Source of the DNA: Syntrophales bacterium
Lineage (GTDB): Bacteria > Desulfobacterota > Syntrophia > Syntrophales > UBA2210
DNA: 64,000 nucleotides
Assembly: GCA_963664485.1 (NCBI GenBank)
Contig: OY761459.1
Location: 581,275-645,274, forward strand
Direction: 5' to 3'
The translations under genes were made by a program, and so were the position numbers. Below the pieces are notes generated by a model, which worked only from the letters and a program-made list of their open reading frames with translations, did no database searches and was not told where the DNA came from. Below, in pieces: positions 22,646 through 58,503 of this stretch (its first letter is position 1; every line of letters starts with the position of its first letter).

Positions 22646-22658
22646 TCTGGAATAACAC

Positions 22659-37723: not shown

Positions 37724-38018
37724 TTTTTGACGATCCTTACATGTTTCACATCACTATCATTCATATCAGAATTTCGTAATTTATCCTGCCGGATACCGGA
37801 ACATTCTGCTGCCTCTGTTCGTTACCGGTTCACCCGAAACTACATGTTTCCGATATTGCTGACTAATTTTATCATCTGCTTATCTTCTTTGAAAACTTCA
37901 GATGTGAGTTAAAAGGGCTTTATCTACCTTTGTACAAAACCGTTTTCATTAAAAAACAGCACGTCTGAAAATGTTTGCCATAACCAAAACAAGGTCCCGA
38001 TATCTAAAGCTTAATCAG

Positions 38019-40185: not shown

Positions 40186-40189
40186 CTTT

Positions 40190-41379: not shown

Positions 41380-42375
41380 TCAGCGTACATTATACAAAAT
41401 CCATTTTCCGTTCCAGGATTTACTTATGATGCCTTCGTGAACCAGTTCTACCAGGTGTACATATGTTTCGTTGAGAGCGAGAAAAAGATCAAAGTCGGAG
41501 AGATTCTCTCCGAATATATCTACGGAGATTTCAAAAGCCGTTCTGGAACATTTTTCAGCGGAACGCAGGATACGGTTTTTCCTGTCCTCGTGATGTTTTA
41601 TCATTTCGTCGACTCTATCTCTCAGGTTTGAGAACGGCGCCCCGTGAGCCGGCAGGATCATCGCAATGGGAATTTCCCGGATAACGGACAGTGAATCCAG
41701 AAAACTGCGCAAAGATCGGAAACCCGGGCAGAAAATGTCGGGAGCCAGATTCGGTGTGATAGCCTGCAGCACATGATCACCCGAAAGGAGAATACCCTCT
41801 TTACGAAAGAAAAAACAGACATGATCCCGTGAATGTCCCGGGGTAGGGAGCACTTCAAACGATGTTCCACCAATGGAATATTTCTTGTCACAATTCAGAT
41901 ACTCATCAACCTCGAAAGGGAAAATCGCCCTTCTGAAACGTTGAATAACAGACGCCATGGCATCGACTTTTTCTTCCCCTATTCCCTGTTCCAGGTAAAA
42001 TCTCCTTCTCTCGTCATCGAGAAGTTCTTCATTCTCGATCCTTTGCAGTATCTGCCTGCCAGCTTCGGACATGTGGATGACTGCTCCCGATTTCTCTTTG
42101 ATCCTGCCCGCCATACCGCAGTGATCGGCATGATAGTGCGTGATGAATACATGATCTACATCGCAAACGGATCTTCCGATAGCCTTCAGAGAATCCTCAA
42201 GCATCAAGAAGGAATCTTTCAGGTTAAACCCGGTATCGAAAAGGGTCACACCATCTTCATGAGCAAAAACGATGACATTGACCTGTTCGAGGCGGGAGGG
42301 CATGGGCAGTATCACCCGGTAAAAGTTCTCTGCGACCTCTTTTATCGATTTTTCAGAGATTCTCAAGTTCGGCAT
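41380..42375 (-). CDS. MBL-fold metallo-hydrolase
   Basis: 331 aa. HxHxDH motif is ITHYHADHCG, with later PGHSRDH and PAHG. The start overlaps the msbA copy-1 stop (TGATG). Confidence 0.8.
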   Translation of the reverse strand: MPNLRISEKSIKEVAENFYRVILPMPSRLEQVNVIVFAHEDGVTLFDTGFNLKDSFLMLEDSLKAIGRSVCDVDHVFITHYHADHCGMAGRIKEKSGAVIHMSEAGRQILQRIENEELLDDERRRFYLEQGIGEEKVDAMASVIQRFRRAIFPFEVDEYLNCDKKYSIGGTSFEVLPTPGHSRDHVCFFFRKEGILLSGDHVLQAITPNLAPDIFCPGFRSLRSFLDSLSVIREIPIAMILPAHGAPFSNLRDRVDEMIKHHEDRKNRILRSAEKCSRTAFEISVDIFGENLSDFDLFLALNETYVHLVELVHEGIISKSWNGKWILYNVR

Positions 42376-44102
42376 CAGGCGTTATTGTTTTTGAACTGCA
42401 TGTTGTACAGTTTGTAATATTCACCCTTCTTTGCAATGAGCGCATCGTGTGTTCCTTCTTCGACTATCCTCCCCTTCACTATCACGATTATCCGGTCCGC
42501 GTGGCTTATCGTCGAAAGGCGGTGCGCGATGACGAAGGTTGTCCTTCCCTTCATGAGATTCTCGAGGGCGCCCTGTACCTCCATCTCGGCCTCGGTGTCG
42601 AGCGACGATGTCGCCTCGTCCAGAATGAGAATGGGCGCATCCTTGAGAAGAGCCCTGGCTATCGATAACCGCTGACGCTCACCCCCGGACAGCCTCGTTC
42701 CCTGCTCTCCGATAACGGTCTCAAATCCATTCGGCAGGTTCAGGATAAATTTATACGCGTTGGCCGATTTCGCCGCGCTGATTATCTCTTCGTCGCTCTT
42801 CTTTATATCACCATACGCAATGTTATTCCTGACGGTATCGTTAAATAATATAGTCTGCTGTGTCACGATACCTATCTGACTCCTGAGTGATTCGATCGTT
42901 ACATCACGAATATCGTGACCGTCGATCAGTATCTCTCCTTCAGTTACATCGTAAAACCTGGGTATCAGGTTGACCAGCGTCGTCTTGCCTCCGCCGCTCA
43001 TCCCGACAAAGGCAACCACTTCTCCCGATCTTATATCCAGGTTTATGTCTCTCAGAACGGGTTCGTCGCCGTAGCTGAAGGTAACGTTCCTGATCTCGAT
43101 CCCGTCCGAAATCTTCGGCAGTTCCACCGCGCCTTCCCGGTTCCCTATCTCGGGCACGATATCCATAATACCGAAGACACGGATGGCGGCGGATATACCG
43201 TGCTGGATCGTATTATTCACGTTCGTCAGTCTCTTCACGGGCTCGTAAAGCATGATGAGAGCGGCAAGAAAGGAGAAAAACGTACCCGGGGTGGATGTGC
43301 CTTTTATAACCTGGTAACCCCCGTAAAAAACAATCGCGGCAATCCCGATACCCCCGAGAAATTCCATGAACGGAGACGACATCGCGCGTATGGACACGGC
43401 CTTCATGTGAAAACGGAAAAGCTTCTCGTTCTCTTTCGAGAATCTCCCGCCTTCGTAATCTTCCATCCCGAAGGCTTTTACGATCCTTGTCCCCGATATG
43501 GTCTCCTGCAGCAGGCTGGTGAGGCTCCCCATCGTAACCTGGGTGCTCGTGGCTACCTTCCTCATCTTCCTGCCGAATTTGACTATAGGGTATATCGTCA
43601 GTGGAAAAACAACCATGGCAATCAGCGCCAGCTTCCAGTCACGATAAAAAATCACGAAAATAAGACCGATCAGTGTAAACGAATCTTTAAAAAGACTGGT
43701 CACCGCCTCGGAAACAGCCCCCTGGATAAGATTTACATCGTTCGTGATGCGGGACATCAGCACCCCGGTATGACTCTTGTTGAAAAAAGAAAGGGATTGC
43801 TTCTGAATGTGATTGTAAAGCTCACACCGCAGATCCGCGACCACACGCTGACCTGCAAAACTCATCAGAACGGTCTGACCGTAATTGCACACGCCTTTGA
43901 CAAGGTATATCAGAATGATTACCACAGGTATCCACTTCAGCATGGAGGCGTTACGGTTGAGGAATATCCCATCCAGGGCGGGTTTGACGAGAAAGGCAAG
44001 CGAAGAAGTGGTAGCTCCGACAAACAGCATGCACAGCATCGCAAGAATGAATTTCGGAATATGAGGCTTCGACAGTCTTAAGATTCGTCTGAATATATTC
44101 AT
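42375..44102 (-). CDS. msbA: Lipid A export ABC transporter permease/ATPase MsbA (copy 1)
   Basis: 575 aa with six predicted TM helices. Walker A is GMSGGGKTT, the signature is LSGGERQR and Walker B is ILILDEATS. Confidence 0.9.
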   Translation of the reverse strand: MNIFRRILRLSKPHIPKFILAMLCMLFVGATTSSLAFLVKPALDGIFLNRNASMLKWIPVVIILIYLVKGVCNYGQTVLMSFAGQRVVADLRCELYNHIQKQSLSFFNKSHTGVLMSRITNDVNLIQGAVSEAVTSLFKDSFTLIGLIFVIFYRDWKLALIAMVVFPLTIYPIVKFGRKMRKVATSTQVTMGSLTSLLQETISGTRIVKAFGMEDYEGGRFSKENEKLFRFHMKAVSIRAMSSPFMEFLGGIGIAAIVFYGGYQVIKGTSTPGTFFSFLAALIMLYEPVKRLTNVNNTIQHGISAAIRVFGIMDIVPEIGNREGAVELPKISDGIEIRNVTFSYGDEPVLRDINLDIRSGEVVAFVGMSGGGKTTLVNLIPRFYDVTEGEILIDGHDIRDVTIESLRSQIGIVTQQTILFNDTVRNNIAYGDIKKSDEEIISAAKSANAYKFILNLPNGFETVIGEQGTRLSGGERQRLSIARALLKDAPILILDEATSSLDTEAEMEVQGALENLMKGRTTFVIAHRLSTISHADRIIVIVKGRIVEEGTHDALIAKKGEYYKLYNMQFKNNNA

Positions 44103-44380
44103 AACACCACGGTCAACGGCCGATCACGATCCTATGGCCGTCGCCTCTTCTATCAGCATCACGGGAATCCCGTCCCGTATCTCGTACATCAATTTGCATG
44201 CATCGCATATCAGCCCGCTCTCGTCTTCGTTCAGACGAATATGCCCTCTGCACCTCGGACACACCAGAATCTCCAGCAGTTCCCTGTCAATATCCATAAA
44301 CCGCTCACCTCTCCATACCTTACCCGGCCTCTATATCACTCACAGGCCTCCTTGTAAAACCCTTAACCGGATAGATTAAA
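42382..44380. repeat. Direct repeat copy 1 (~2.0 kb; most of msbA + trm112-like + 83 nt upstream)
   Basis: Aligns base for base with 56505-58503 at an offset of 14,123 nt. About 17 mismatches were counted by eye and no indels were seen. Confidence 0.9.
44124..44297 (-). CDS. Trm112/YcaR-family small zinc-ribbon protein (copy 1); below the ORF-track length cutoff
   Basis: Manual translation gives 57 aa: MDIDRELLEILVCPRCRGHIRLNEDESGLICDACKLMYEIRDGIPVMLIEEATAIGS. It ends 21 nt upstream of the msbA start. Confidence 0.75.
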   Translation of the reverse strand: MDIDRELLEILVCPRCRGHIRLNEDESGLICDACKLMYEIRDGIPVMLIEEATAIGS

Positions 44381-44745
44381 CGTAAAATTTTCGGAGAGCC
44401 CTTTTCCCCGGTGTGACGGTTTACGCTGCCGCCGTGAAACTGCCGGCCGAAATCATCCCGGGGTTCTCCCGAAAATACCGCCGGCAATCACGAAACCTAT
44501 CACCTTATATGCCGAGATTTCGACATGCTTCAGTTATATTCCGAAATCTTTCAGTTAATTATGGCACTGTGAGTCCCTCATGTGTTATCTTCCTTTCGAC
44601 AGTTGTCCTTTTCCTCTTTTGGTTTATTGGCATCTGTCGCCTGCCGGTTTTTTAGTCAGGAAAATGGATATGTTTTATTACAGGCTTGCACATATACGCC
44701 CAATATATAGGGCAAAACGGCAGAATAAAAACCCACATTAGGATA

Positions 44746-45714
44746 ATGAATTCCAAAGTAAGCATAATTATTCCGGTTTATAATGCTGAGCAGTATCTGG
44801 AGCAGTGTCTGGCTTCCGTTTGCAACCAGACATTGGAAGACATCGAAATAATTATCGTTAATGACGGCTCTACCGACGGGTCGAGAAGTATACTAGAAAG
44901 ATATCTTCGAAAACATTCTAATATTAATATTATAGATAAAGAAAAAGCGGGAGTGGCTATCGCAAGAAATACGGGCATTGAATTTGCCGGAGGCGAATAT
45001 ATCGGATTTGCGGACGCAGATGACTGGATAGAACCTGTAATGTTCGAAGAAATGTATTATTCAGCGACTGGAGTAAATGCCGATATCGCAGTAGGGTGCG
45101 TAAAACGATACTCGGATCAGAGAAAAACCTTTGGAGGGATGAACCTGTCTTTTTTCGAACAATTCCCGAAAGGTTTCCATTGGCGAGACGTTATAGAGAA
45201 AATTCCTTCTTTGCGCGCCTATTCATATAATAAAATTTATCGGAGAAAGCTTTTAATAGATAATAACATCACCTTCCCCGACTGCCGCATACATTCGGAT
45301 AATCTCTTTATGTATGCATCACTTACATCGGCAAAAAAGATAATATGTATTAACAAGGATTTTTACTATTATAGAATTCACGAAGACGGTCAACTGACAA
45401 AGCTGGCCGATGAACGAGTATTCGATGTCTTCAAAGTATACGGACTCCTCGAAGACTATTTAAGGAATAAAGGCATTTACACAGAGCTTAAAGAGCAGGT
45501 GACAAAACGGAAACTGGAAGAATATTTAAGGGATTTCGGAAAAATAAGGAACAATAAAAATATGCGGAGATCCTATTTTGAAAAAATGCACAGAGCATTG
45601 CAGGAAACAGAACTAAGCAATGATATTTTATCAACATTTTCCAGACGTCAAAGACACATACTGAAACTGGCAAAGAAAAAGGATCATACCGTATTCTGGC
45701 AACCATTCTTATAA
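44746..45714 (+). CDS. Glycosyltransferase family 2
   Basis: Start at ATG 44746 (MNSKVSIIIPVYNAEQYLEQCL). Also IVNDGSTDGS and FADADD. Confidence 0.85.
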   Translation: MNSKVSIIIPVYNAEQYLEQCLASVCNQTLEDIEIIIVNDGSTDGSRSILERYLRKHSNINIIDKEKAGVAIARNTGIEFAGGEYIGFADADDWIEPVMFEEMYYSATGVNADIAVGCVKRYSDQRKTFGGMNLSFFEQFPKGFHWRDVIEKIPSLRAYSYNKIYRRKLLIDNNITFPDCRIHSDNLFMYASLTSAKKIICINKDFYYYRIHEDGQLTKLADERVFDVFKVYGLLEDYLRNKGIYTELKEQVTKRKLEEYLRDFGKIRNNKNMRRSYFEKMHRALQETELSNDILSTFSRRQRHILKLAKKKDHTVFWQPFL

Positions 45715-45810
45715 AATGAAACTTCGATGCTTACGCTCCTCTTATTAGGCATAAAGAAACGGCAGTATGCAGCGCAGAGCACTTAAATAGTTACCAATTG
45801 TGTTAATATA

Positions 45811-47106
45811 TTACGAACTCCTTATAACCTCCGCAACGAGATCGAACGTTGAGTCCACATCCCTTTGAATAGCAGGAATAATTTCAGCAATACGATGTTT
45901 GTCATCTTTTCGTTTTTTCCATGCTTGCTTCAGAATATCGATTACAACTATTTGATCCAACCGATCATGTCGGCAAACATACCCGTCCATTCCGAAAGTT
46001 GTCATCAATTCCGAATATTTATGAGACCATCCCAAGGCAATGACCGGTATTTTGGAAGAAAGGGCAAACACCAGGCTATGAAAACGTGAGGCTATCAGCA
46101 AATCAAGGTGACTTATTACAGACTTTATTGTTTCGCTCTGATGATAATTACGGATTGTAAAGCAATATTTATTGTTTGTAACCAGTGACTCAATAATACC
46201 GCAGAGAAACCGATCATCCCTACCGGTTTTCCCAGGCACTTTGATCTCATTAGGCAATAAAAGAACGGCCGCGCCCAAATTATTGATGCAATAATTAGCC
46301 GCTTCGACTAACAACTGTATGTACTTATTATTGGAACCGGTCCCCAAGGTTCGTCCGTAAATACGCATATTGGGTACTATGCCAATCAAAGGTTTTGTCC
46401 CGAATTCATATCCGACATCGCGGAGAATGGATGCCCCAATGTTCGAATGCGCCCCCTGAAATCGGAAAGCAATATCCGGCGCTATGTGTATCTTATCTGA
46501 TGGTTTATCAAGAAGTGAAGAAAGATGATTAAAAGATTCCTTGTCGCGGGCGAAAAGAAGTGAAGCATCTTCACAAAGTCTTCGTGTCCATTCAGCGATA
46601 TCCCCTTTTTCGAAAGGGCCCCATGCCTGTGGTAAAAATATATATGGCTTATGATGGTTTTTACAGTAATCAATCCATGTCCATGCATCTTTACAGCGAT
46701 CCACATTCCATGCATCGCCATAAGCGTAACCACTGGTATCGATTATCGCATCGACAGATTTAATCTTTAGCATTTTACGAGCCTCGCCACTGCTCGTCAT
46801 CATGGCCCGCCTGAAATCGGAATTATGCAGAAAGGTTAATGCACGTCGCACTCGTATGGGCAAGTTTGATCCCAGAAGTTCTTCCCGGTTTGAAGAACAC
46901 AATACAGGGAAAAGGCCTGAGATATTTGCAAGCTGTGCCTCCAGTGAAGATACAAAGATATGGAAGCATACATATGGAATTCTTCTACCCAATTCCCGCT
47001 GTGCGGTACGCAACATCGCTTCCGCACCCTTGTTGTCAAAATCGGCGCCCCTAATCAATATATCCATCAGCGTAAACTCCGAAGTAATATATTCTGATTT
47101 AATCAA
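45811..47106 (-). CDS. Polysaccharide pyruvyl transferase family protein
   Basis: N-terminus is ILIRGADFDNKGAEAM. The C-terminus is LLIASRFHSLVFALSSKIPVIALGWSHKYSELM. The true start is probably ATG 47067. Confidence 0.75.
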   Translation of the reverse strand: MIKSEYITSEFTLMDILIRGADFDNKGAEAMLRTAQRELGRRIPYVCFHIFVSSLEAQLANISGLFPVLCSSNREELLGSNLPIRVRRALTFLHNSDFRRAMMTSSGEARKMLKIKSVDAIIDTSGYAYGDAWNVDRCKDAWTWIDYCKNHHKPYIFLPQAWGPFEKGDIAEWTRRLCEDASLLFARDKESFNHLSSLLDKPSDKIHIAPDIAFRFQGAHSNIGASILRDVGYEFGTKPLIGIVPNMRIYGRTLGTGSNNKYIQLLVEAANYCINNLGAAVLLLPNEIKVPGKTGRDDRFLCGIIESLVTNNKYCFTIRNYHQSETIKSVISHLDLLIASRFHSLVFALSSKIPVIALGWSHKYSELMTTFGMDGYVCRHDRLDQIVVIDILKQAWKKRKDDKHRIAEIIPAIQRDVDSTFDLVAEVIRSS

Positions 47107-47194
47107 TCTTGCGCTAACTAATAATCATGGCATTGTTGATCCGCAATAACCCGCATATTACGTATTAAATTTACGATTGGAACCGTTTATTCAA

Positions 47195-48631
47195 CTATTT
47201 CGAATCGTTCCTGCTTGTTATTGTCAGTCGTGTACTACGAGCGTATCGTACCCATTCAACCCTTTTCCGGCATTTAGCGTCCAGCTTACCCAGCACTCTG
47301 TGAGGAATCCTTTTCATTACCCATCGCACGGTGGCATATTGCATTAAAACAAACATAACGTAGTACTGAAGTGAATAAGCGATATCCCATATTTTATGAA
47401 ACTGCCACTTCCGAGAACGCTTGAGGTGGGGGTTCTCGAATCGCACCCCATACTCAGGTACTCCAACGCGTAAAATCTTCGCTACCCGGCTAAACGTGTC
47501 CAGTCCGAGTTTTTTACCCGCCACCTTAAGAGAACTTGCAACGGAGTCCTCATCGACCCGGTGTACAACTAACTTTCCCTCCTCTATTGCCCGGGAAACG
47601 ACCTTGTGCCCTCGCTCGGTACGAATAACGAACTCGGAAAGCCCATTTTTAAGATCAAAACCCTGCTCCTCGAAAAATCCGTGCTCACGGGAAATCCTGC
47701 AATCCCCGCACGAGATATCGGAGAATTCGTTTGCCTTGTCAAAACAATTCAGACACCGCCAATTAGTGAAGTAGGGTCTTGGCCAGAGACGACTATTTTT
47801 CGAATCAAAATTACAAGTGTGACCATGCTTGTTTTTTAATCTCATATCGCAGGGCCAACCGCGCCATATTTTGTCGCGGTAACGGAAATAAGTCAGATCC
47901 TCTCTTTTAAATCCGCACTTATGGAGTACCTGCTCGTGGAAATGGTATGTAAAGACACCCAGGCAGTGTAATCCGATGTATAGAAATATCTTTTCCGTCA
48001 AATTGGGCAATGCCTCCTCAGCCTTGCGCATCCCCTGTATCTGGCAGGGTGTACCTACAAACGCAAATCTGCCGGGCTTTTCAAGTATTTCCTTAATAAT
48101 TAGGGAAGCTGGGATCGGATTGTACTTTGACCCCACCGCAGCAAGTATTTCCTGTCGGTTACGAGCGATATAAGTTTTTGGTTTCAACGGAGAATTCTCT
48201 CGCCAACAGGTAACAACCGCTCCGTCGATCAACTCTCTTTCCAAGCAGTAAAGAAGAATCGTGGAGACAAACCCGCCGCTCTGCGACAGCCGTAGTATTT
48301 CTTCATCGGTCGTATATCCGGAATAGGCGATGAGACAGGCGCCAAGTGCGGTATGCCCGGGTAGCGAACCATGCAACCTTTTATACTGTTTGACGTAATC
48401 AAAACCATGACCGGGACATACACTCACGCACAGGCCGCAATGATTGCACAAATTATAATTGATAAAGGGAACATAAACTCCGAATCGATTTACGCGCATC
48501 TCAATTGCTTTAGTGCCGCACACTCCGGCGCATGTACCACAACTCGTGCAAAGATGTTGTTTAACAACAAAGTCCACATTAAACTGCCTGGATTTGATTA
48601 CACTATCTTCGTAAGTCATAGCCGGAACCAT
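47195..48631 (-). CDS. FrhB/FdhB-like (coenzyme F420 hydrogenase beta-subunit family) protein with an N-terminal 2x[4Fe-4S] ferredoxin domain
   Basis: 478 aa with CTSCGTCAGVCG and CNHCGLCVSVCPG, followed by an FrhB_FdhB-type region (SQSGGFVSTIL...FVGTPCQIQG). Confidence 0.7.
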   Translation of the reverse strand: MVPAMTYEDSVIKSRQFNVDFVVKQHLCTSCGTCAGVCGTKAIEMRVNRFGVYVPFINYNLCNHCGLCVSVCPGHGFDYVKQYKRLHGSLPGHTALGACLIAYSGYTTDEEILRLSQSGGFVSTILLYCLERELIDGAVVTCWRENSPLKPKTYIARNRQEILAAVGSKYNPIPASLIIKEILEKPGRFAFVGTPCQIQGMRKAEEALPNLTEKIFLYIGLHCLGVFTYHFHEQVLHKCGFKREDLTYFRYRDKIWRGWPCDMRLKNKHGHTCNFDSKNSRLWPRPYFTNWRCLNCFDKANEFSDISCGDCRISREHGFFEEQGFDLKNGLSEFVIRTERGHKVVSRAIEEGKLVVHRVDEDSVASSLKVAGKKLGLDTFSRVAKILRVGVPEYGVRFENPHLKRSRKWQFHKIWDIAYSLQYYVMFVLMQYATVRWVMKRIPHRVLGKLDAKCRKRVEWVRYARSTRLTITSRNDSK

Positions 48632-49775
48632 TATTGCTCGTTATGTTTCGATAAACTTCATTAAGCTGTCTACCTATATTTTCATGACTGAAATTATCCT
48701 GAACATACCGTGAAATCTCCCGGATGGAATAATCCCGATAATGATCCAGCATGTAATTGACCGCCTTTGTCAGGGCTCCGACATCCCCCGGGGGAACCAG
48801 TATACCTTTGCTTTTATCAATTTTTTCCTGCAACGCCGGGATATTGGAAGCCACAACCGGTTTCCCGCACGCCATCGCTTCAAAATAGGTTACACCGAAG
48901 GTCTCGTACAAGCTCGGTTGCACGTAAACTGTGCAGTTCCTCATAAATTCGGCTACTTCCCGCTTTGATCTCGCTCCATGAAAAGTTACTGTTTCCTCAA
49001 GCCCCAGGCTGTTTGCCATCTGTTGAAGCTCCGCGTGTTTTTTCCCTTCGCCGATAATATCCAGAACGAAATCATTTCTTTCGGACTTCAGACGGGCCAT
49101 CGATTCAAGAAGATAGTTAATCCCTTTTTTCGGTGAAAGTGTAGCGACGCACAGGATCATTTTCTTCCCGATTTTATTTTCATTATGATCGGGATAAAAG
49201 AGATTAATATCGATTACATTCGGTACAACTTCCTGATTGTTTCTTATACCGTGAGCGCTGATCGCATCTCGTAACGATTTACTTACGGGGAGAACAACAG
49301 CCGCCTCATTCATCGCGAATCGAGCTTTCAAACGATCCTTTCTGCTCAGGGTACTGACTAAAGCAGTCCAGTGTTCGGAGATAACGAACGGGATCCCGAA
49401 ACGCCTTTTTAACGCAACAGCCGTTGCGCCGGCAAGAAATACATGCGCATTAACGACATCCGGCTTCCACCCTTCAAGAAGTAATTTTTTAAAAGCGGCT
49501 AATACGCTCCATCGATATATTATGTTCGGCATTACATCTCTGTGTTTCACTCTGATTGTGCGTATTCCGTCTTCTATCCTGTCTGAAGATAACTCGTAAA
49601 GTCCTCTGACGCCTTTCTTCTCACGATCACTATATATTATCGTAACATCGTTATAAATAGCGGCCGCTTTTGCGTGTTCCTTTACAAAGAGCGCTTTACA
49701 GGGATTTTTGTCGCTCGGATACCATCCTGAAGACGGCAAAAAGAGGATTTTCAATTTATTGTCTTCTCTATTCAT
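48603..49775 (-). CDS. Glycosyltransferase family 4
   Basis: 390 aa with a GT-B C-terminal EX7E region, VQPSLYETFGVTYFEAMACGKPVV. Confidence 0.85.
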   Translation of the reverse strand: MNREDNKLKILFLPSSGWYPSDKNPCKALFVKEHAKAAAIYNDVTIIYSDREKKGVRGLYELSSDRIEDGIRTIRVKHRDVMPNIIYRWSVLAAFKKLLLEGWKPDVVNAHVFLAGATAVALKRRFGIPFVISEHWTALVSTLSRKDRLKARFAMNEAAVVLPVSKSLRDAISAHGIRNNQEVVPNVIDINLFYPDHNENKIGKKMILCVATLSPKKGINYLLESMARLKSERNDFVLDIIGEGKKHAELQQMANSLGLEETVTFHGARSKREVAEFMRNCTVYVQPSLYETFGVTYFEAMACGKPVVASNIPALQEKIDKSKGILVPPGDVGALTKAVNYMLDHYRDYSIREISRYVQDNFSHENIGRQLNEVYRNITSNNGSGYDLRR

Positions 49776-50794
49776 GAGTTATGAATCAACGCCTCAGGAG
49801 AATTTTCGTCCACCCAGTCGAATATTTTCCCCATCTGTTCCTTGTACGTATAATGTTTCAGAACCTTTTCCTGTCCCGCCTTTGCAATCCTTTTCCGTTC
49901 ATCTTCATTCTTCAGATAGTACCGGATCTTTTCCACCATCTCATCGTCCGTTTCGTAAACTTCCACCTCAGTGCCGATCTCGAATGCATGTTCGATTCCG
50001 GGAGTTTTTCTGCACAGGTAAAAACCCCCGCATCCCATAACCGCAAAGCTTCGGTTGCTTAAATATCTGCCTGCAAAAGGTTTATCGGCGTCTTCGCCGA
50101 TAACAATCTTTGTATGACGTATAACATCCGCGAAATCTTTCATATATACCTGCCTGCCTGCCCATACGTGATGTACACCTCCCAGAAAGTAGCGGATATG
50201 TCTTAACTGACGGGACAGACGTCTTCCCCACCACTTCACGTCGATACCTTCACGTATCATTCTCATAGCCAGCTCGCATCTTCTGTTATAGGTCAGGCCT
50301 TCCATAGCCTTCCCCATCGAACCGATCATGGCTACATCCGCGTAATATTCGCTTACAGGTTCCGCATCGGGGAATTCAATTCCAAAAAATTCCTGCGAGA
50401 ATCCCTGGTGCATCCATTTGACATTTTTAACCCCCTGCTTACGAAGGTAATCGACATGGTCCTCCACATTGGTGAGAACAAAGTCATGAGGCCTGGCGAT
50501 CGGAACATACCAGTCACTTATCGGAACATCCAGACACCAGAAGATTGTAATACAACCGAAGTTCTTTATCTTATGTATCAGCGACGGAGAAAGAGATTCG
50601 CCTTTCTGGGTAAAAAAATAGGTGGGATTTTCCTTCTTCAGGATTCTGAAGATATCTTCTTCGTGATTTTTATTTGTCCTGTAATCATAACCGATTACCG
50701 ACAGACCAGCCTGCTCCATCCCCTTAATTATGTACCTGCCCGAGTTACCGGGTTGATCGATGGGAGCACAGTAAAGAACGGTTTTCCCCCGCAT
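49772..50794 (-). CDS. CgeB-like glycosyltransferase-fold protein (Glyco_trans_1_2 type)
   Basis: 340 aa. The C-terminus is GCGGFYLCRKTPGIEHAFEIGTEVEVYETDDEMVEKIRYYLKNEDERKRIAKAGQEKVLKHYTY. There is a 4-nt overlap with the downstream gene. Confidence 0.6.
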   Translation of the reverse strand: MRGKTVLYCAPIDQPGNSGRYIIKGMEQAGLSVIGYDYRTNKNHEEDIFRILKKENPTYFFTQKGESLSPSLIHKIKNFGCITIFWCLDVPISDWYVPIARPHDFVLTNVEDHVDYLRKQGVKNVKWMHQGFSQEFFGIEFPDAEPVSEYYADVAMIGSMGKAMEGLTYNRRCELAMRMIREGIDVKWWGRRLSRQLRHIRYFLGGVHHVWAGRQVYMKDFADVIRHTKIVIGEDADKPFAGRYLSNRSFAVMGCGGFYLCRKTPGIEHAFEIGTEVEVYETDDEMVEKIRYYLKNEDERKRIAKAGQEKVLKHYTYKEQMGKIFDWVDENSPEALIHNS

Positions 50795-50908
50795 CGTAGA
50801 TATCCTTTCACAACATATATTGCTTACGATTATATTCCTGCAACCTGAATTAAAAACAAATCGTGTTCAAACTAATACCAGTGAAGAAATGTTCCGCACA
50901 AAGGATAT

Positions 50909-52066
50909 TTACCCCTTATGGCCCCGTTTTTCGCCAAGCAGTGTCCTGTAGAGTTCTGCGTATCGTGAAGCAACAACTTTAACATCATATTGTGGAATCA
51001 TTTTATTTATGTGAGGTACAAAGCTCGCCTCCAGCTTCTGCCTGTTTCGTAGACCTAAAAGCAACTTATGCGCTAAATCTTCAGGAGAATTTCTTTTGTA
51101 TATGATACCTGTTTCACCATCTTTAATAAGTGTTTTTATAGTGCTGTAGTCATTTGCTATTATGATTTTTCTACACGCCAGGGCTTCCAGCAGGACACCC
51201 GGCAAACCCTCCCCGGCCGATGAAGGGAACACGAACAGTTCCGCATTTTGCAACAGTCTTATTTTTTCATCACCGGACTTAACCCCCGGAAAATATACCT
51301 TATCGTCGATATTCAGTGACCGGGCAAGAAGTTTTAACTTATCAAGGTCCGAACCGCTGCCTACAATGTAGAGAAATACTTCGGGACAATCCCGCCTCAA
51401 CAGGGAAAAGGCATTGATAAGTACATCCAGACGCTTATTCCCCGTAAGTCTTCCGAGATACATAATATATCTGTCCTCACCGGTTGCTACGGAAGGGATG
51501 GATTCGTAAAGTCTCTGGTCAAATCCGAGAGGAATTTCCACAATCTTCTTTTCAAGCGTCGGGTCCTGACTCAAGAGGATATTTGTAATTTCCGGATTTA
51601 TGGAAATGATTTTATCCATAAATGGAAGACTTGCCTTGAATCTCTTGAGCTGCCTCCTGCCGCCTTTGAGCATCCTGTCATTCCGAAACATTCCCAAGAG
51701 CACAACCGACGGCACAAACTTTCTGAAAAGTGTTCCGAAATACATCTGGTCCACGCCATGGCAATGAAGGATATCGAAGCGTTCCTTACGATAAAGAGAA
51801 AACAGCTGGCATAGAATAAATAAAGAATCCAAAAAATTTTTTGAAGGACTTTTCACGTATCGGACAATCCGGTATGGACTTTCTCCCACAGGCACGTCGA
51901 ATTTCTTTTCATGCGGTCCGAAAACAACACATTCAATACCATCAAACTTTGCAAGTTCCGTCAATATTGCATGCGTGTTAATCGCAACCCCGCTCAACCT
52001 GGGGATATAAGTATGCAAGAGGTGCATTACCTTAATTTTTACTGAATCTTCTTCTCCCGAATACAT
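50909..52066 (-). CDS. Glycosyltransferase family 4
   Basis: 385 aa with VFPSSAGEGLPGVLLEALACRKIII. Confidence 0.85.
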   Translation of the reverse strand: MYSGEEDSVKIKVMHLLHTYIPRLSGVAINTHAILTELAKFDGIECVVFGPHEKKFDVPVGESPYRIVRYVKSPSKNFLDSLFILCQLFSLYRKERFDILHCHGVDQMYFGTLFRKFVPSVVLLGMFRNDRMLKGGRRQLKRFKASLPFMDKIISINPEITNILLSQDPTLEKKIVEIPLGFDQRLYESIPSVATGEDRYIMYLGRLTGNKRLDVLINAFSLLRRDCPEVFLYIVGSGSDLDKLKLLARSLNIDDKVYFPGVKSGDEKIRLLQNAELFVFPSSAGEGLPGVLLEALACRKIIIANDYSTIKTLIKDGETGIIYKRNSPEDLAHKLLLGLRNRQKLEASFVPHINKMIPQYDVKVVASRYAELYRTLLGEKRGHKG

Positions 52067-52130
52067 TCAATCTCCTTGTAATACACCATCCATATCATGG
52101 TATCCGTAATATGTTTTTAAAACCGGGTTG

Positions 52131-53336
52131 TTATTTTGTTATCTCGTCTATCAACTCTTTAAACCGCTCTTCCCTTTTCTTTATTGAAAATTCTCTTTCC
52201 ACCCTTTCTTTCAGACGTATGGCCTTTGTTCCCGCCGCTTCCGGCTCCTTTTCAAGAACAAGCGATATTGTACCGGCCAGCTCTTCAGGATCAAGAAACT
52301 TTGGATTCGTCAACTCCAGCGTATCGGGATTTACCACATATTCGGGCATCGACAATGTTTCCAGATATGAATAACCGGATGGTTCTATTTTCGGCGTCAG
52401 CAGATAACCGAAACTATTATCGGGTATAATCTCAGGAATACCATCAACCTTTGAGGCAATCACGGGAGTTCCGGCGAGGGCCGCCTCTATATTAACGTTA
52501 CCGAAAGGTTCTCTCGCGGACGGCACAACCGTTACATCGGCCATTTTATAGAAGGGTGCCGTATCCGTCTGCATTCCGGTGAAGATTACCCTGTCTTCCT
52601 TCTTTCTCTCCTTGACCAGATTTTCTAATGTTTTTCTGACCTTACCGTCGCCTACCAGAACGAGTTTTATATCCTTTGCCGAAAGAAAATCGAGTGCCTC
52701 TATCAACGTATGAACACCTTTCAGTGTTATGAATCTCCCGACATAAAGAATCACTCTTTCGCCGGTCAGTCCATATTTCTTTCTCAAACCTTCTATTTCC
52801 TTTTTGCCTGTCTGTTTTATTCTCTCGGCATAGTCCGGCAGAAAAGAGTTATAGATTACTTTGATCCTTTCTTCGGGAATGTTCCATCTCTTATGAAGCA
52901 TGATCTTTGATGCCACAGTATTGGAAAAGAAAAAATCGAATTTGTCTATCCAGTCGGACTCTTCCGAATTGAGAAACCAGGAATGCCCTCCGTCATAGAA
53001 GACTTTTTTACCTTTTGCAAAACGGGCGAACAAATCCATCAATCGAACGTCCTGTATTTCATAAAACAGGTTCACATCGTGGGAGAAATCGATTTTTCTA
53101 CGGAGCAGATGCGCTCGCATAGATTTGGGAATTCTGACTCCATGCCAGTTTTTATATTCATACACTCGATAGTTTTTCTGTAGAAAGTCTCTGAATTTTT
53201 CATGTATCCTGGTTCCTGTATGGAGAATCTCATGATTCCATATACCGTCCCTTACAGACTCGGCCTTTAGAAAACGATATAAACGGTTTTCTTTACCTGC
53301 CGGAACTTCAAGATGAATGCAGTGCAATATTCTCAT
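52131..53336 (-). CDS. Glycosyltransferase family 4
   Basis: 401 aa with VVPSAREPFGNVNIEAALAGTPVI. Confidence 0.85.
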   Translation of the reverse strand: MRILHCIHLEVPAGKENRLYRFLKAESVRDGIWNHEILHTGTRIHEKFRDFLQKNYRVYEYKNWHGVRIPKSMRAHLLRRKIDFSHDVNLFYEIQDVRLMDLFARFAKGKKVFYDGGHSWFLNSEESDWIDKFDFFFSNTVASKIMLHKRWNIPEERIKVIYNSFLPDYAERIKQTGKKEIEGLRKKYGLTGERVILYVGRFITLKGVHTLIEALDFLSAKDIKLVLVGDGKVRKTLENLVKERKKEDRVIFTGMQTDTAPFYKMADVTVVPSAREPFGNVNIEAALAGTPVIASKVDGIPEIIPDNSFGYLLTPKIEPSGYSYLETLSMPEYVVNPDTLELTNPKFLDPEELAGTISLVLEKEPEAAGTKAIRLKERVEREFSIKKREERFKELIDEITK

Positions 53337-53359
53337 GGAATTACCGTCGTCCTTGCTTG

Positions 53360-54445
53360 TTATGTGCGTTCCAGAATAGTTCTTAATCTTGAACCGGCGA
53401 CTCCGATAACGTCCTCACAGGACAGTTCGTCCAGACAGCGGCTTTTACCGCTGTTATTGCATCCTTCTTTTATACAGGGTATACATTCCCATTCTTTTTG
53501 AACGATCGTATGATTTTCCCCCCATGGCGCCCACGTCTTTTTTTCAGTGGGCCCGAAGATCGCCACCACCGGTGTCTTCACCGCGGCCGCCATATGCATG
53601 GGACCCGAATCGATTCCGACAAACATCGTTGCGTTTGCAAGAAGAACGACCAAATGCCTCAATGACAGCCGCCCCCCCAGGTTGACGGGACAACTTCGGG
53701 ATAACCCGGCTATTTTATTAGTGAAATCGACCTCATCCCGACTGTCGCCACACACTAAAACCGTAGTAATATCGAATTCGTCTTTGAGATGATCACACAG
53801 CTTCGCGTATCCCTCAATCCTCCAGGCCCTGTATTTTGATTTCAGGATCGGATGCAGGACGACAAATTCACTGTCGAGCGACAAGCCCTCTTGTAATAAA
53901 ATCTCCTCACATGAAAGCGATTCTTCTTTATCCCAGTAAAGGACAGGGGACCGTGAAGGAGGAACATGGCCCAGTTGCTCTATCATTTGCAGATGCCGGT
54001 CCACCATGTGCGTACCCTTCGGTATTACTATCAAATCGGTAAATAATAAGTGCCTGTCAAAGCGCCGGATATTTTCCGGTTTAGATTTATATCCCAACCT
54101 TTTTTTCGCGCCGCTCAGAAAGCTGTAGGCGGCACCCCGATCATTCTTCGTCAATTCCAGTGCCATATCGAAATGCAATCTTCTCAGCTTCAGTATCAGA
54201 TCAATTTGTTTCTTCAGATCGGTGAGAGGGTTTTCATCTCTTTCCACTACAAATATCCTGTCGACATTCGGATTGTTTATCAACATGGCATCCGTACCCT
54301 TATTGACGAGAGCCGTTATGGATGCCTCAGGATAGTAATACCTTAATGCCTCGAAAACAGGGGTTGTAAGCACTACGTCTCCCAGATATCTGAGTTTTAT
54401 GACGAGGATATTGTTAATTTCCTTCCGAGTATCTTTGGTTACCAC
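53360..54445 (-). CDS. Glycosyltransferase family 9 (heptosyltransferase-like)
   Basis: 361 aa with ILVIKLRYLGDVVLTTPVFEALR and VGIDSGPMHMAAAVKTPVVAIFGPT. Confidence 0.8.
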   Translation of the reverse strand: MVTKDTRKEINNILVIKLRYLGDVVLTTPVFEALRYYYPEASITALVNKGTDAMLINNPNVDRIFVVERDENPLTDLKKQIDLILKLRRLHFDMALELTKNDRGAAYSFLSGAKKRLGYKSKPENIRRFDRHLLFTDLIVIPKGTHMVDRHLQMIEQLGHVPPSRSPVLYWDKEESLSCEEILLQEGLSLDSEFVVLHPILKSKYRAWRIEGYAKLCDHLKDEFDITTVLVCGDSRDEVDFTNKIAGLSRSCPVNLGGRLSLRHLVVLLANATMFVGIDSGPMHMAAAVKTPVVAIFGPTEKKTWAPWGENHTIVQKEWECIPCIKEGCNNSGKSRCLDELSCEDVIGVAGSRLRTILERT

Positions 54446-55574
54446 ACATCTCTCCGTATATAACAGACAGTTGCTCCAGATACCGTTTCCATGTGTGAAG
54501 GCTGAGAGCTTCCTCGTTAAAACACTGCACGGATTCCGAATCGATATCGAGACCCATTCGAATCTTTACGGCGATTTCATCGTGGTCCGTCGGGTCATCT
54601 ATAATATAACCGTTTCTGCCGTCAGCCAGCACCTCTGAAGCCCCGCATATTCTTGATGTGATTACCGGCAGACCGGCCGCCATGGCCTCCAGGCAAACAT
54701 TTCCAAAGGGTTCATAAATCGTCGGAAAAATGAAAAGATCACCGGCAGAATAATATTTTTCCACATCGACCACCGGACCCATGAATAGTATACGATTTTC
54801 CACACCTTCTTTTTTCGCAAGGCGTAGATAATACCCTGTCCTGTCCCTGCCTATTACCATTAACATGATATTTGGATCCAATTTTGCCAGGGCTTTGATA
54901 ACGGCTTTAAGTCCTTTCCTCTTGAACCCTGAACCGACAAATATGAGAAGAGAAGCGGCGTCGGGAATTCCGATCGATTTCCTGACGTTTGCCCTTGCCT
55001 CTGTCCTGTTCTTTAGGCGGAAACGGCTCACATCTATCGCATTGTACAGGACTTTGATCTTTTCCGGAGGAACTTTGTAGTGTTTTATAATTTCTTCTTT
55101 TCCTCTCTTTGATATCGCGATTATCATCCTGTAATTTCCGTCCTGAAAGATGTTTCGTTCCATACCGAGCAGGACAAGGTGCAGGGGGTTGATCCTGTTT
55201 ACGAATATTTTGTACCAGGGATCTATCTTCCGCCGCTGTATGAGCCATTCCCGGTGACATCCGTCTCCCGCACGGTAGATATCCTGATATATCGTTCTTT
55301 CGAAGCTGTGTATTATATCGAACCGTTCCTTTTTCATCATGTTTCTGGCGTTGATGGCAAAGCTCAGTGCTTCGAGAACCGAAAGTCCCTTAAACATCGG
55401 TACTTGATGGAATATCATCCGGTTTTCCCAGGCCGTTTCTCTTTCGGTTTTCCAGTTGTTTGCGAAGACATGAACTTCATGACCTATACCCAGCAGATGT
55501 TCGGCAAGCGCGGACGTATATCGCTCGGCACCTCCGAAATCGGTATAATATTTCCTGATTAATGCGATTTTCAC
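54414..55574 (-). CDS. Glycosyltransferase family 4 (WaaG-like architecture)
   Basis: 386 aa with FGGAERYTSALAEHL and IFPTIYEPFGNVCLEAMAAGLPVI. Confidence 0.85.
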   Translation of the reverse strand: MKIALIRKYYTDFGGAERYTSALAEHLLGIGHEVHVFANNWKTERETAWENRMIFHQVPMFKGLSVLEALSFAINARNMMKKERFDIIHSFERTIYQDIYRAGDGCHREWLIQRRKIDPWYKIFVNRINPLHLVLLGMERNIFQDGNYRMIIAISKRGKEEIIKHYKVPPEKIKVLYNAIDVSRFRLKNRTEARANVRKSIGIPDAASLLIFVGSGFKRKGLKAVIKALAKLDPNIMLMVIGRDRTGYYLRLAKKEGVENRILFMGPVVDVEKYYSAGDLFIFPTIYEPFGNVCLEAMAAGLPVITSRICGASEVLADGRNGYIIDDPTDHDEIAVKIRMGLDIDSESVQCFNEEALSLHTWKRYLEQLSVIYGEMCGNQRYSEGN

Positions 55575-56341
55575 TTCGTATCCTTCTGAAGTTCATGAAG
55601 TTTTGCGTATTTCAGAAAAGTATAGCACGCATAGAGAGCGGAAAGTATGAATCCGTAATATCCTTCAAGGAAACCTATCCTTACCACATACATATTGATG
55701 AACGTATAGATAGGACGGAATAACATATGGCGGATTCCGTAAATTTTCTTCTCCTTTAACAGTTCGTATGCCGCAAGCGTGGAATAACGGTCGAGTCTCG
55801 TCATGAAACCGTCCAGTGATCTGTATGTGTGATGCTCCATCGGATTTTTAAGATGGTCGGCAGTGCCGTTAAGATCGATTGCTTCGTGCACTTCCCTTAT
55901 CCCGAACAATCCTTTCCCCCTTTTAAAAAGACGCAACGTATAGTCGGGATACCATCCGCAACGTTTTATCCACCGTCCCAGGAAAAAATTTTTTCTTGCG
56001 ATAAAATAACCGTCTTTAGAATTACCGCTGTCGATTACGTTTTCAATCTCGCCTCTTAAGGCGGGCGTAATTCTTTCATCGGCATCAAGACTAAGCACCC
56101 AGTCCCTGGTTGCCTTCTCTATAGCGCTGTTTTTCTGTATCGAAAAACCTTTCCACGGTTCCACGTAAAAACCGGCTCCGAACTCTCTGCATATCTCCTC
56201 TGTCTTGTCTACGCTTCCGCAATCGACCACGATAATTTCGTCCGCCCATACGACACTTGCGAGACATTCCCTGATATTGGCTTCTTCATTATGGGTAATG
56301 ATTACAACAGACAAACCATTTGAAGATTTTTTATCAGTCAC
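55571..56341 (-). CDS. Glycosyltransferase family 2 (WaaE/KdtX-like LPS core type)
   Basis: 256 aa from a GTG start. LSVVIITHNEEANI, IVVDCGSVDKT and LDADE. It is a paralog of 31365-32144. Confidence 0.85.
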   Translation of the reverse strand: MTDKKSSNGLSVVIITHNEEANIRECLASVVWADEIIVVDCGSVDKTEEICREFGAGFYVEPWKGFSIQKNSAIEKATRDWVLSLDADERITPALRGEIENVIDSGNSKDGYFIARKNFFLGRWIKRCGWYPDYTLRLFKRGKGLFGIREVHEAIDLNGTADHLKNPMEHHTYRSLDGFMTRLDRYSTLAAYELLKEKKIYGIRHMLFRPIYTFINMYVVRIGFLEGYYGFILSALYACYTFLKYAKLHELQKDTK

Positions 56342-56497
56342 GGCTGCATTGCCTCTTTTTATAGTGTGTTTATTTGGTAATCACTGCTATTTCCATCACG
56401 GCCGGGAGAACTCGACCATCCCATGCAACCACATTTCTCCGGAAGACCTCTCCGGCCAGATAATCTCAAAACTTGGGGAATCAAGAACAAATATAAT

Positions 56498-58225
56498 TCA
56501 GATATTATTGTTTTTGAACTGCATGTTGTACAGTTTGTAATATTCACCCTTCTTTGCAATGAGCGCATCGTGTGTTCCTTCTTCGACTATCCTCCCCTTC
56601 ACTATCACGATTATCCGGTCCGCGTGGCTTATCGTCGAAAGGCGGTGCGCGATGACGAAGGTTGTCCTTCCCTTCATGAGATTCTCGAGGGCGCCCTGTA
56701 CCTCCATCTCGGCCTCGGTGTCGAGCGACGATGTCGCCTCGTCCAGAATGAGAATGGGCGCATCCTTGAGAAGAGCCCTGGCTATCGATACCCGCTGACG
56801 CTCACCGCCGGACAGCCTCGTTCCCTGCTCTCCGATAACGGTCTCAAATCCCTTTGGCAGGTTCAGGATAAATTTATACGCGTTGGCCGATTTCGCCGCG
56901 CTGATTATCTCTTCGTCGCTCTTCTTTATATCACCATACGCAATGTTATTCCTGACGGTATCATTGAATAATATCGTCTGCTGTGTCACGATACCTATCT
57001 GACTTCTGAGTGATTCGACCGTTACATCACGAATATCGTGACCGTCGATCAGTATCTCTCCTTCAGTTACATCGTAAAACCTGGGTATCAGGTTGACCAG
57101 CGTCGTCTTGCCTCCGCCGCTCATCCCGACAAAGGCAACCACTTCTCCCGATCTTATATCCAGGTTTATGTCTCTCAGAACGGGTTCGTCGCCGTAGCTG
57201 AAGGTAACGTTCCTGATCTCTATCCTGTCCGAAATCTTCGGCAGTTCCACCGCGCCTTCCCGGTTCCCTATCTCGGGCACGATATCCATAATACCGAAGA
57301 CACGGATGGCCGCGGATATACCGTGCTGGATCTTATTATTCACATTCGTCAGTCTCTTCACGGGCTCGTAAAGCATGATGAGAGCGGCAAGAAAGGAGAA
57401 AAACGTACCCGGGGTGGATGTGCCTTTTATAACCTGGTAACCCCCGTAAAAAACAATCGCGGCAATCCCGATACCCCCGAGAAATTCCATGAACGGAGAC
57501 GACATCGCGCGTATGGACACGGCCTTCATGTGAAAACGGAAAAGCTTCTCGTTCTCTTTCGAGAATCTCCCGCCTTCGTAATCTTCCATCCCGAAGGCTT
57601 TTACGATCCTTGTCCCCGATATGGTCTCCTGCAGCAGGCTGGTGAGGCTCCCCATCGTAACCTGGGTGCTCGTGGCTACCTTCCTCATCTTCCTGCCGAA
57701 TTTGACTATAGGGTATATCGTCAGTGGAAAAACAACCATGGCAATCAGCGCCAGCTTCCAGTCACGATAAAAAATCACGAAAATAAGACCGATCAGTGTA
57801 AACGAATCTTTAAAAAGACTGGTCACCGCCTCGGAAACAGCCCCCTGGATAAGATTTACATCGTTCGTGATGCGGGACATCAGCACCCCGGTATGACTCT
57901 TGTTGAAAAAAGAAAGGGATTGCTTCTGAATGTGATTGTAAAGCTCACACCGCAGATCCGCGACCACACGCTGACCTGCAAAACTCATCAGAACGGTCTG
58001 ACCGTAATTGCACACGCCTTTGACAAGGTATATCAGAATGATTACCACAGGTATCCACTTCAGCATGGAGGCGTTACGGTTGAGGAATATCCCATCCAGG
58101 GCGGGTTTGACGAGAAAGGCAAGCGAGGAAGTGGTAGCTCCGACAAACAGCATGCACAGCATCGCAAGAATGAATTTCGGAATATGAGGCTTCGACAGTC
58201 TTAAGATTCGTCTGAATATATTCAT
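56498..58225 (-). CDS. msbA: Lipid A export ABC transporter MsbA (copy 2)
   Basis: 575 aa. It differs from copy 1 at 6 residues: T/K, G/R, I/V, N/K, L/V and the C-terminal A/I. Confidence 0.9.
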   Translation of the reverse strand: MNIFRRILRLSKPHIPKFILAMLCMLFVGATTSSLAFLVKPALDGIFLNRNASMLKWIPVVIILIYLVKGVCNYGQTVLMSFAGQRVVADLRCELYNHIQKQSLSFFNKSHTGVLMSRITNDVNLIQGAVSEAVTSLFKDSFTLIGLIFVIFYRDWKLALIAMVVFPLTIYPIVKFGRKMRKVATSTQVTMGSLTSLLQETISGTRIVKAFGMEDYEGGRFSKENEKLFRFHMKAVSIRAMSSPFMEFLGGIGIAAIVFYGGYQVIKGTSTPGTFFSFLAALIMLYEPVKRLTNVNNKIQHGISAAIRVFGIMDIVPEIGNREGAVELPKISDRIEIRNVTFSYGDEPVLRDINLDIRSGEVVAFVGMSGGGKTTLVNLIPRFYDVTEGEILIDGHDIRDVTVESLRSQIGIVTQQTILFNDTVRNNIAYGDIKKSDEEIISAAKSANAYKFILNLPKGFETVIGEQGTRLSGGERQRVSIARALLKDAPILILDEATSSLDTEAEMEVQGALENLMKGRTTFVIAHRLSTISHADRIIVIVKGRIVEEGTHDALIAKKGEYYKLYNMQFKNNNI

Positions 58226-58503
58226 AACACCACGGTCAACGGCCGATCACGATCCTATGGCCGTCGCTTCTTCTATCAGCATCACGGGAATCCCGTCCCG
58301 TATCTCGTACATCAATTTGCATGCATCGCATATCAGCCCGCTCTCGTCTTCGTTCAGACGAATATGCCCTCTGCACCTCGGACACACCAGAATCTCCAGC
58401 AGTTCCCTGTCAATATCCATAACCCGCTCACCTCTCCATACCTTACCCGGCCTCTATATCACTCACAGGCCTCCTTGTAAAACCCTTAACCGGATAGATT
58501 AAA
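56505..58503. repeat. Direct repeat copy 2 (~2.0 kb)
   Basis: Counterpart of 42382-44380. The right boundary (58503) falls 2 nt beyond the stop codon (58499-58501) of the pagL-like gene. Confidence 0.9.
58247..58420 (-). CDS. Trm112/YcaR-family small protein (copy 2)
   Basis: The 57-aa product is the same as copy 1, with one synonymous difference (GAG/GAA). Confidence 0.75.
   Translation of the reverse strand: MDIDRELLEILVCPRCRGHIRLNEDESGLICDACKLMYEIRDGIPVMLIEEATAIGS

Follow-up and report, generated by a model that had tools for sequence, protein, structure and literature searches.

Direct repeats and a bracketed glycan cassette in the lipid A operon

The stretch of DNA analysed here, a 64-kb window from a 2,586,994-bp contig of a Syntrophales bacterium (OY761459.1), contains a lipid A/lipopolysaccharide (LPS)-core operon in which a pair of genes, trm112 and msbA, is present twice, as two long direct repeats bracketing a cassette of glycan genes. 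We denote the trm112–msbA repeat unit R (copies R1 and R2) and the bracketed cassette X; all positions are those of the window. The operon comprises, in order, lpxK, an lpxL-like acyltransferase gene, a family 9 glycosyltransferase (GT9) gene, a GmhB-like HAD phosphatase gene, a second GT9 gene, pagL, the R2–X–R1 segment, a metallo-β-lactamase (MBL)-fold hydrolase gene, GT4, GT9 and GT2 genes, and further glycosyltransferase genes.

The two repeats (42382–44380 and 56505–58503) align without a gap at an offset of 14,123 nucleotides (nt), with exactly 17 mismatches (99.15% identity), giving a repeat of 1,999 bp and an insert of 12,124 bp. Directly beyond both repeat ends the identity drops to the random level (~25%), and the pair is the sole long repeat within the window. 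Both copies retain an intact 57-amino-acid Trm112/YcaR-like open reading frame (ORF), identical between them, and an intact 575-amino-acid MsbA ORF, the latter differing at six residues, five within the repeat and the last one at the junction. The edges of R are gene-exact: it starts 2 nt ahead of the pagL stop codon and runs to the stop codon of msbA, whose two final sense codons show three transitions between the copies at the junction. msbA copy 1 and the MBL-fold gene are coupled in translation (TGATG). An earlier sequence-only reading of this DNA, which had claimed a direct repeat of ~2.0 kb with ~17 mismatches and no indels, intact MsbA and Trm112-like ORFs of these lengths in both copies, copy 1 coupled by TGATG to the MBL gene, copy 2 abutting the stop codon of pagL and a spacer of 156 nt before a GT2 gene (156–163 nt in the present analysis), was accurate in each of these respects. 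The integrity of the genes within R is demanded by selection; the exclusion from R of fragments of the neighbouring genes is not.

MsbA copy 1 matches the TIGR02203 equivalog model over positions 1–571 of 572 with 637 bits (cutoff, 602), and both copies of R are predicted to encode the true MsbA lipid A flippase, copy 2 being assigned through the near-identical copy 1. The nearest species representatives of this MsbA are from Syntrophales/Syntrophaceae metagenome-assembled genomes (MAGs), with 84–89% amino-acid identity. The public annotation of the source contig (NCBI and the European Nucleotide Archive, ENA) also calls two MsbA genes, as 551-amino-acid products with a different start. Look-ups of exact protein sequences for both MsbA copies, the FrhB-like protein, GT4c, the LpxL-like protein and GT9a returned no entry, the index used being one in which the source contig is masked. 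The four junctions are referred to below as J1 (pagL to R), J2 (msbA to X), J3 (X spacer to trm112) and J4 (R to MBL), and the features of the segment, in the direction of the operon, are as follows.

58499–59089, minus strand: pagL-like lipid A deacylase gene (PF09411), the native upstream flank
56505–58503, minus strand: R2, promoter-proximal in the operon, with a trm112/ycaR-like gene at 58247–58420 (Trm112p, PF03966), msbA copy 2 at 56498–58225 and an 83-nt leader
44381–56504, minus strand: X, the inserted cassette of 12,124 nt, lacking in L001, L086 and L088, the relatives with empty sites, and shifted in GC content and codon usage
56342–56504, minus strand: J2 spacer, from msbA copy 2 to the first gene of X; the new junction turns the last MsbA residue from A to I
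55571–56341, minus strand: GT2a, GT2 glycosyltransferase (PF00535), with relatives of at least 90% identity in other samples
54414–55574, minus strand: GT4a, GT4 glycosyltransferase (PF00534/PF13439), sharing 31% identity with the native GT4 of 40190–41335
53360–54445, minus strand: GT9, LPS heptosyltransferase III-like (PF01075; TIGR02201, 188.7 bits, cutoff 170.2)
52131–53336, minus strand: GT4b, GT4 glycosyltransferase (Pfam)
50909–52066, minus strand: GT4c, GT4 glycosyltransferase (Pfam)
49772–50794, minus strand: Glyco_trans_1_2 (CgeB-like) protein (PF13524)
48603–49775, minus strand: GT4d, GT4 glycosyltransferase (Pfam)
47195–48631, minus strand: FrhB-like Fe–S/flavoprotein gene (Pfam FrhB_FdhB and a 4Fe–4S domain)
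45811–47106, minus strand: polysaccharide pyruvyltransferase gene (Pfam PS_pyruv_trans)
45756–48515, minus strand: sub-module consisting of the FrhB-like and pyruvyltransferase pair, precisely absent from the X of L087 and L089
44686–45714, plus strand: GT2b, GT2 glycosyltransferase (PF00535), the sole plus-strand gene of X, divergent from trm112 copy 1 and 99% identical in L087 and L089
44381–44685, no strand: J3 spacer, from GT2b to R1, the only junction without an independent contig; L089 matches from 44406 on
42382–44380, minus strand: R1, with a trm112/ycaR-like gene at 44124–44297 and msbA copy 1 at 42375–44102 (TIGR02203)
41380–42375, minus strand: MBL-fold hydrolase gene (PF00753), the native downstream flank

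The content of X previously listed from the sequence (two GT2, four GT4, one GT9 and one CgeB-like gene, with a pyruvyltransferase and an FrhB-like gene) is reproduced by Pfam, which assigns the last two to PS_pyruv_trans and FrhB_FdhB. The genes of X have a GC content of 43.8% and a third-position GC content (GC3) of 46.2%, compared with 48.4% and 53.3% for the other 39 genes (Mann–Whitney p~2e-4), and in codon usage they are more deviant than 99.9% of 10-gene sets drawn at random, and than any contiguous 10-gene block; the AT-richness formerly judged by eye is therefore substantiated by computation, though the shift is modest. In codon usage, X is no farther from the other glycan genes of the window than those are from the housekeeping genes. 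The proteins of X are at most 33% identical to the neighbouring paralogues, which rules out a local paralogous duplication as its source. The GT4a–GT9 pair of X (53360–55574) has the same gene order as the native GT4–GT9 pair behind msbA–MBL (39076–41335), at 31% and 32% identity, a distant parallel hinting that X may be a divergent, alternative form of the stretch normally found after msbA. Searches of the J2 and J3 spacers for traces of pagL, MBL or any other gene, and for similarity to the fetched loci, gave hits at the chance level only, no microhomology above 2–4 nt was found at the junctions, and scans for promoters and terminators gave results equal to the shuffle expectation.

No integrase or transposase was detected among the long ORFs scanned over most of the window (Pfam, E≤1e-5), in agreement with what the sequence-only reading had stated. 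Site-specific recombination machinery is likewise missing, the only tRNAs lie at 9.6–9.9 kb, 33 kb away, and an Rfam scan returned no family in the window. Megablast searches of plasmids and phages with R+X gave no match, and Pfam finds no replication or transfer genes in X. Nor does Pfam find Wzx, Wzy, WaaL or an ABC-2 exporter among the ~24 glycosyltransferase genes at 30438–64000. Three ORFs (33137–34108, 35112–35765 and 23474–24700) have no family match and could conceal a ligase or polymerase. Elsewhere in the window, adjoining SIR2-family and TANGO2-family genes (21869–23441, plus strand) lie upstream of mnmG and are unrelated to R–X–R.

Relatives with and without the cassette

Both repeats flanking X align to one and the same single-copy sequence in relatives lacking X (L001, L086 and L088). 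L001 is a contig of 21 kb from ENA, and its flanks match the window with 98.5% and 96.9% identity. It has the gene order lpxB–lpxK–…–pagL–trm112–msbA–MBL–GT4–GT9–GT2, and in blastn it aligns to window positions 64000–56505 and then 44380–38051, being without exactly X and one repeat copy. L086 and L088 are single-copy pagL–R–MBL or R–MBL contigs with ~96–97% identity. The single-copy form pagL–trm112–msbA–MBL, the existence of which had been predicted from the window, is thus present in related strains with its breakpoints exactly at the repeat ends, and synteny among the relatives is heterogeneous, not uniformly two-copy. Four more distant loci (L002–L005, ~78–80% nt identity over the repeat region) likewise carry a single trm112–msbA, with MBL or GT4 next to it, and lack X. 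Two msbA genes within ±10 kb occur in none of the 80 fetched loci, and a tandem R–R form in none of the relatives examined. Because L002–L005 lack X and no fetched locus has two nearby msbA genes, the ancestral state is a single trm112–msbA followed by MBL or GT4, with X being derived and present only in some strains. About 50 sites (2.6–2.9%) separate the empty-site strains from either copy of the repeat, and because of this divergence they are regarded as separate lineages, not as recent excisants.

Of the four junctions, independent assemblies confirm three: J1 is also found in L001, L086 and L091–93, J4 in L001, L086 and L088, and J2, with the same …NNI stop followed by the spacer, in L087. 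This last contig (Logan, SRR16297625, 9.1 kb) starts 30 nt inside R, crosses from msbA into the spacer, and runs from GT2a through GT4d with 98.4% identity, X differing by 1.2–1.6% between it and the window. As L087 independently contains both X and its junction with msbA, the J2 join is no peculiarity of the source assembly. The GT2b end of X is found with 99% identity in L089 (Joint Genome Institute, JGI, sample Ga0172382), and further relatives of the X proteins, at least 90% identical, are present on short ENA and JGI contigs. X is thus a recurrent accessory segment in the population, and its junction with msbA predates the window strain. Logan graphs use k=31, so that k−1 equals the 30 nt by which L087 overlaps R at its start; this points to a branching of the graph precisely at the edge of the repeat in that sample, which fits either R–X–R or a mixture of strains with and without X.

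L087 and L089 are both without window positions 45756–48515 and share the boundaries 45755/48516, the first ~115 nt of the FrhB-like ORF being kept. The stretches to compare are 7991–8026 of L087 and 1350–1385 of L089, and 2.76 kb are missing. Their haplotype is a deletion variant, and X is modular, with at least two structural variants. The FrhB-like/pyruvyltransferase pair also occurs elsewhere, in Wzx/Wza-type loci.

The 17 differences between R1 and R2 are distributed unevenly. Successive segments contain 3/1159, 5/124, 0/201, 9/229 and 0/286 differences, and 14 of the 17 fall within 554 nt (42668–43221; P~5e-5 under uniformity), forming two patches.

42668–42896, minus strand: recombination patch 1 in msbA, with 9 of the 17 differences; at six sites R1 has the L086/L088 allele and R2 the L001 allele
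43098–43221, minus strand: recombination patch 2 in msbA, with 5 of the 17 differences

Because these six sites, all within 42729–42882, match alleles segregating in other strains, several of the R1/R2 differences are pre-existing population alleles imported by recombination, not mutations arising after the duplication; DNA from other strains has contributed to the repeats, and alleles have been exchanged with such strains inside msbA. The ratio of nonsynonymous to synonymous differences (pN/pS) between R1 and R2 is 0.15, consistent with alleles shaped by purifying selection. Outside the patches the copies differ at 3 of 1,646 positions (0.18%), and each is 2.7–4.5% different from every other strain; this near-identity may reflect either gene conversion or the very recent formation of R–X–R from very closely related DNA.

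Several further observations were made on the related contigs. L091, L092 and L093, from three samples and assemblies, represent one strain (100% identity over 1.4 kb) and all end within 57 nt inside msbA (window-equivalent 42988–43045, codons ~352–372), after crossing from pagL into R. These ends suggest that the 3′ half of msbA contains a population-level branch or recombination boundary; they were also considered as a sign of a branch at J1, which was rejected, as the contigs cross J1 and break within msbA, giving no support for R–X–R in that strain. The single msbA of L001 (7093–8748) is split into three ORFs by −1 and +1 indels at window-equivalent 43766 and 43351. Its interpretation as a pseudogene was rejected, both indels being located at G-runs and probably representing homopolymer errors of long reads. 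Homology between L001 and the window ends at 38051 (13071 onward in L001), with different glycosyltransferase genes beyond; past this end the window carries a GT10 fucosyltransferase-like gene (36779–37723, 39.8% GC). The region from 38051 down (~36700–38051 and below) constitutes a second segment of glycan genes in this operon that varies between strains. In the upstream flank, 59000–59500 (the GT9/pagL overlap) shows 22 substitutions per 500 nt relative to L001, with 2–12 in the other bins, and may be another recombination patch.

The position of msbA also varies. It lies upstream of lpxK (msbA–lpxK…pagL–trm112) in 45 Syntrophales loci among L002–L081 and downstream of trm112 in the window, L001–L005 and L010. 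This circular permutation, with msbA on one or the other side of the lpx block, is the arrangement to be expected if an msbA–[block]–msbA intermediate lost one copy. The move may have happened more than once, L010 being about as distant as the type-B loci L006–L009.

Origin and function of the R–X–R arrangement

Taken together, we consider it probable that X is a strain-variable LPS-core extension cassette, brought into this Syntrophales lipid A/LPS-core operon by homology-driven acquisition with a 2-kb target duplication. R–X–R is a real yet fairly ordinary strain-specific insertion and no novel kind of element. In the predicted course of events, X would have entered via RecA-type homologous recombination, with msbA providing the homology, from a close relative that already carried X behind msbA. 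Such a native position of X in the donor is suggested by the shared J2 junction and by the distant GT4a–GT9 parallel. A circularised R+X fragment may have integrated by a single crossover, or linear DNA may have been anchored by homology at one side and joined illegitimately at the other, immediately upstream of the trm112 already in place; the two routes yield an identical product. Gene conversion would afterwards have kept the copies near-identical, with short patches being acquired from the alleles of other strains. The extra copy of msbA is most easily explained as a side effect of the insertion.

Because X encodes only transferases, among them the heptosyltransferase III-like GT9, and a pyruvylation pair, and no Wzx, Wzy, WaaL or ABC-2 exporter is found nearby, it most likely acts on the core directly. 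The enzymes of X would extend and pyruvylate the core oligosaccharide on lipid A–core at the cytoplasmic face, and MsbA would then flip the product; core extension and pyruvylation are thus the most likely functions, as judged from the gene families. RecA-mediated recombination between R1 and R2 would precisely delete X and restore the single-copy form of the other strains. We infer from these considerations that X is an unstable strain-level polymorphism of the surface glycan, without a programmed switch.

Several points weigh against this view. X is 1.2–1.6% diverged between strains compared with 0.18% for the repeats outside the patches, requiring the extra assumption of gene conversion or very recent re-integration. 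A donor with a single msbA–X arrangement was not recovered. J3 is known from the source contig alone: a metagenome scan with GT2b aimed at this junction gave L089 as the sole close match, which is 99% identical over the spacer and ends 25 nt before R1. The shift in composition of X is modest and typical of glycan loci generally, and the function proposed for X is deduced from family membership. Finally, both repeat ends fall on stop codons, which is predicted by none of the recombination routes.

The lower divergence of the repeats than of X would be explained directly if R–X–R were old and its repeats were homogenized by concerted evolution, the single-copy strains having arisen through secondary R1×R2 deletion. 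The precise empty sites match the product expected of such a deletion, and the short-read X contigs of other samples end at or near the repeat edges. Nevertheless, L002–L005 are empty, so that the empty state is ancestral for the clade, and in L091–93 the sequence crosses from pagL into R with the graph unbroken, arguing against a second identical upstream boundary of R in that strain. We therefore regard an old R–X–R as unlikely, though not negligibly so.

An intragenomic origin has also been considered, in which trm112–msbA was duplicated within the lineage, in tandem or by template switching, X arrived separately, and the allelic patches were imported later. The private haplotype shared by R1 and R2 outside the patches (3 differences in 1,646 nt as against 2.7–4.5% to others) is in line with such an origin, as is the failure of the plasmid and phage searches to yield a donor replicon. 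This course, however, requires two independent events at exactly one point, and no relative shows a tandem R–R form. Furthermore, J2 is common to L087, the X of which is 1.2–1.6% diverged, so that msbA and X were linked before the duplication appears to have arisen. An intragenomic duplication is accordingly judged distinctly unlikely.

It is conceivable, at long odds, that R+X constitutes a self-contained, recombinase-free mobile glycan module, cycling between R–X–R and an excised circle and moving from strain to strain, with msbA, essential and highly conserved, serving as a universal “attachment” homology. Gene conversion would then keep the repeats identical and hence excisable, and the stop-codon-exact ends and the shifts in msbA position could be footprints of repeated rounds, an elaboration that we consider equally improbable.

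The sequence-only reading had gone further in proposing a reversible switch of the outer core/LOS structure, and this proposal is not supported. A dedicated ON/OFF or copy-number switch operating at high frequency through the 2-kb repeats, by excision and re-integration or by amplification, would agree with the presence/absence polymorphism of X, and repeats of 2 kb with 99% identity are established to be good substrates for RecA. The strains with empty sites are, however, lineages 2.6–4% diverged (~50 sites, or 2.6–2.9%, over the repeat), not excisants, and no recombinase was found. An excised circle, having no identifiable replication genes, would presumably be lost, so that excision would be irreversible within a clone unless X were re-acquired. 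Such a switch seems very improbable.

Least credible is an assembly artefact in which haplotypes with and without X were fused through their common msbA region: the source contig is metagenome-derived, strains of both kinds exist, and J3 has no independent confirmation, but a chimera passing through R could give pagL–R–X or pagL–R–MBL and never an X-to-R edge, because of which J3 must be present in the reads, and, in addition, the 2.59-Mb contig implies long reads easily spanning 2 kb, the copies keep 17 distinguishing single-nucleotide differences and were not collapsed, and J1, J2 and J4 were each found independently.

Comparison with known systems

The arrangement described above is worth comparing with other loci in which surface-polysaccharide genes are exchanged or lost. 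LPS, O-antigen and capsule loci are exchanged via conserved flanks, such as galF–gnd in Enterobacteriaceae and dexB–aliA in pneumococcus, by double-crossover replacement. As in these loci, a low-GC glycosyltransferase cassette varies here between strains, with conserved flanks serving as arms and with mosaic flank alleles. In contrast, the replacements at galF–gnd and dexB–aliA occur without a duplicated flank, whereas the conserved arm is present here on both sides of X. The cap locus of Haemophilus influenzae type b is bounded by IS1016 repeats as a compound transposon and undergoes loss or amplification by homologous recombination. R–X–R resembles it in being a surface-polysaccharide locus between direct repeats that can be lost or amplified by recombination, but its repeats consist of housekeeping genes (Trm112-like and MsbA) and contain no insertion sequence (IS).

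Campbell-type integration would leave the same R–X–R topology, with the repeats representing the segment of homology and with reversal by recombination between them. Here, however, there are no replicon, conjugation or phage functions and no plasmid or phage match, no circular form was found, and the circle is purely hypothetical. An integrase-mediated genomic island is not indicated either, with no tyrosine or serine recombinase among the scanned ORFs and no tRNA nearby.

For the study of uncultured syntrophic anaerobes, R–X–R shows how LPS-core diversity can arise at the strain level, by a cassette being added beside msbA without mobile machinery; the long target duplication leaves X inherently unstable. 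There is also a consequence for metagenomics. Short-read assemblies break at these repeats and within msbA, only long-read contigs show the arrangement, and comparisons of gene content among MAGs will mis-score both the msbA copy number and the presence of the cassette.

The closest counterpart is insertion with long target duplication, a process reportedly described by Nobusato et al. in 2000. It is recognized by intraspecific comparison as a repeat–insert–repeat structure versus a single-copy target, without mobility genes and often with a GC shift (PMC2853133). Furuta, Abe and Kobayashi (2010) screened for repeats of >30 bp around inserts of <20 kb, without an integrase, transposase or tRNA att site, the cargo being a restriction-modification (RM) system and the repeats measuring 46–423 bp (PMC2853133). 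R–X–R conforms to this structural definition in every respect, with its 1,999-bp repeat and 12,124-bp insert, and shares with these cases the long direct repeats around an insert of <20 kb, the single-copy empty relative, the GC shift and the lack of mobility genes. It differs in that the cargo is for LPS-core glycosylation, not RM, and falls outside the RM-cargo part of the screen, so that the proposed link with RM-induced DNA breakage is inapplicable here, and in that the 2.0-kb repeat spans two complete genes, including that of the lipid A flippase. Altogether, R–X–R extends the pattern of long target duplication from RM systems to surface-glycan genes, with a much longer, gene-sized duplication.

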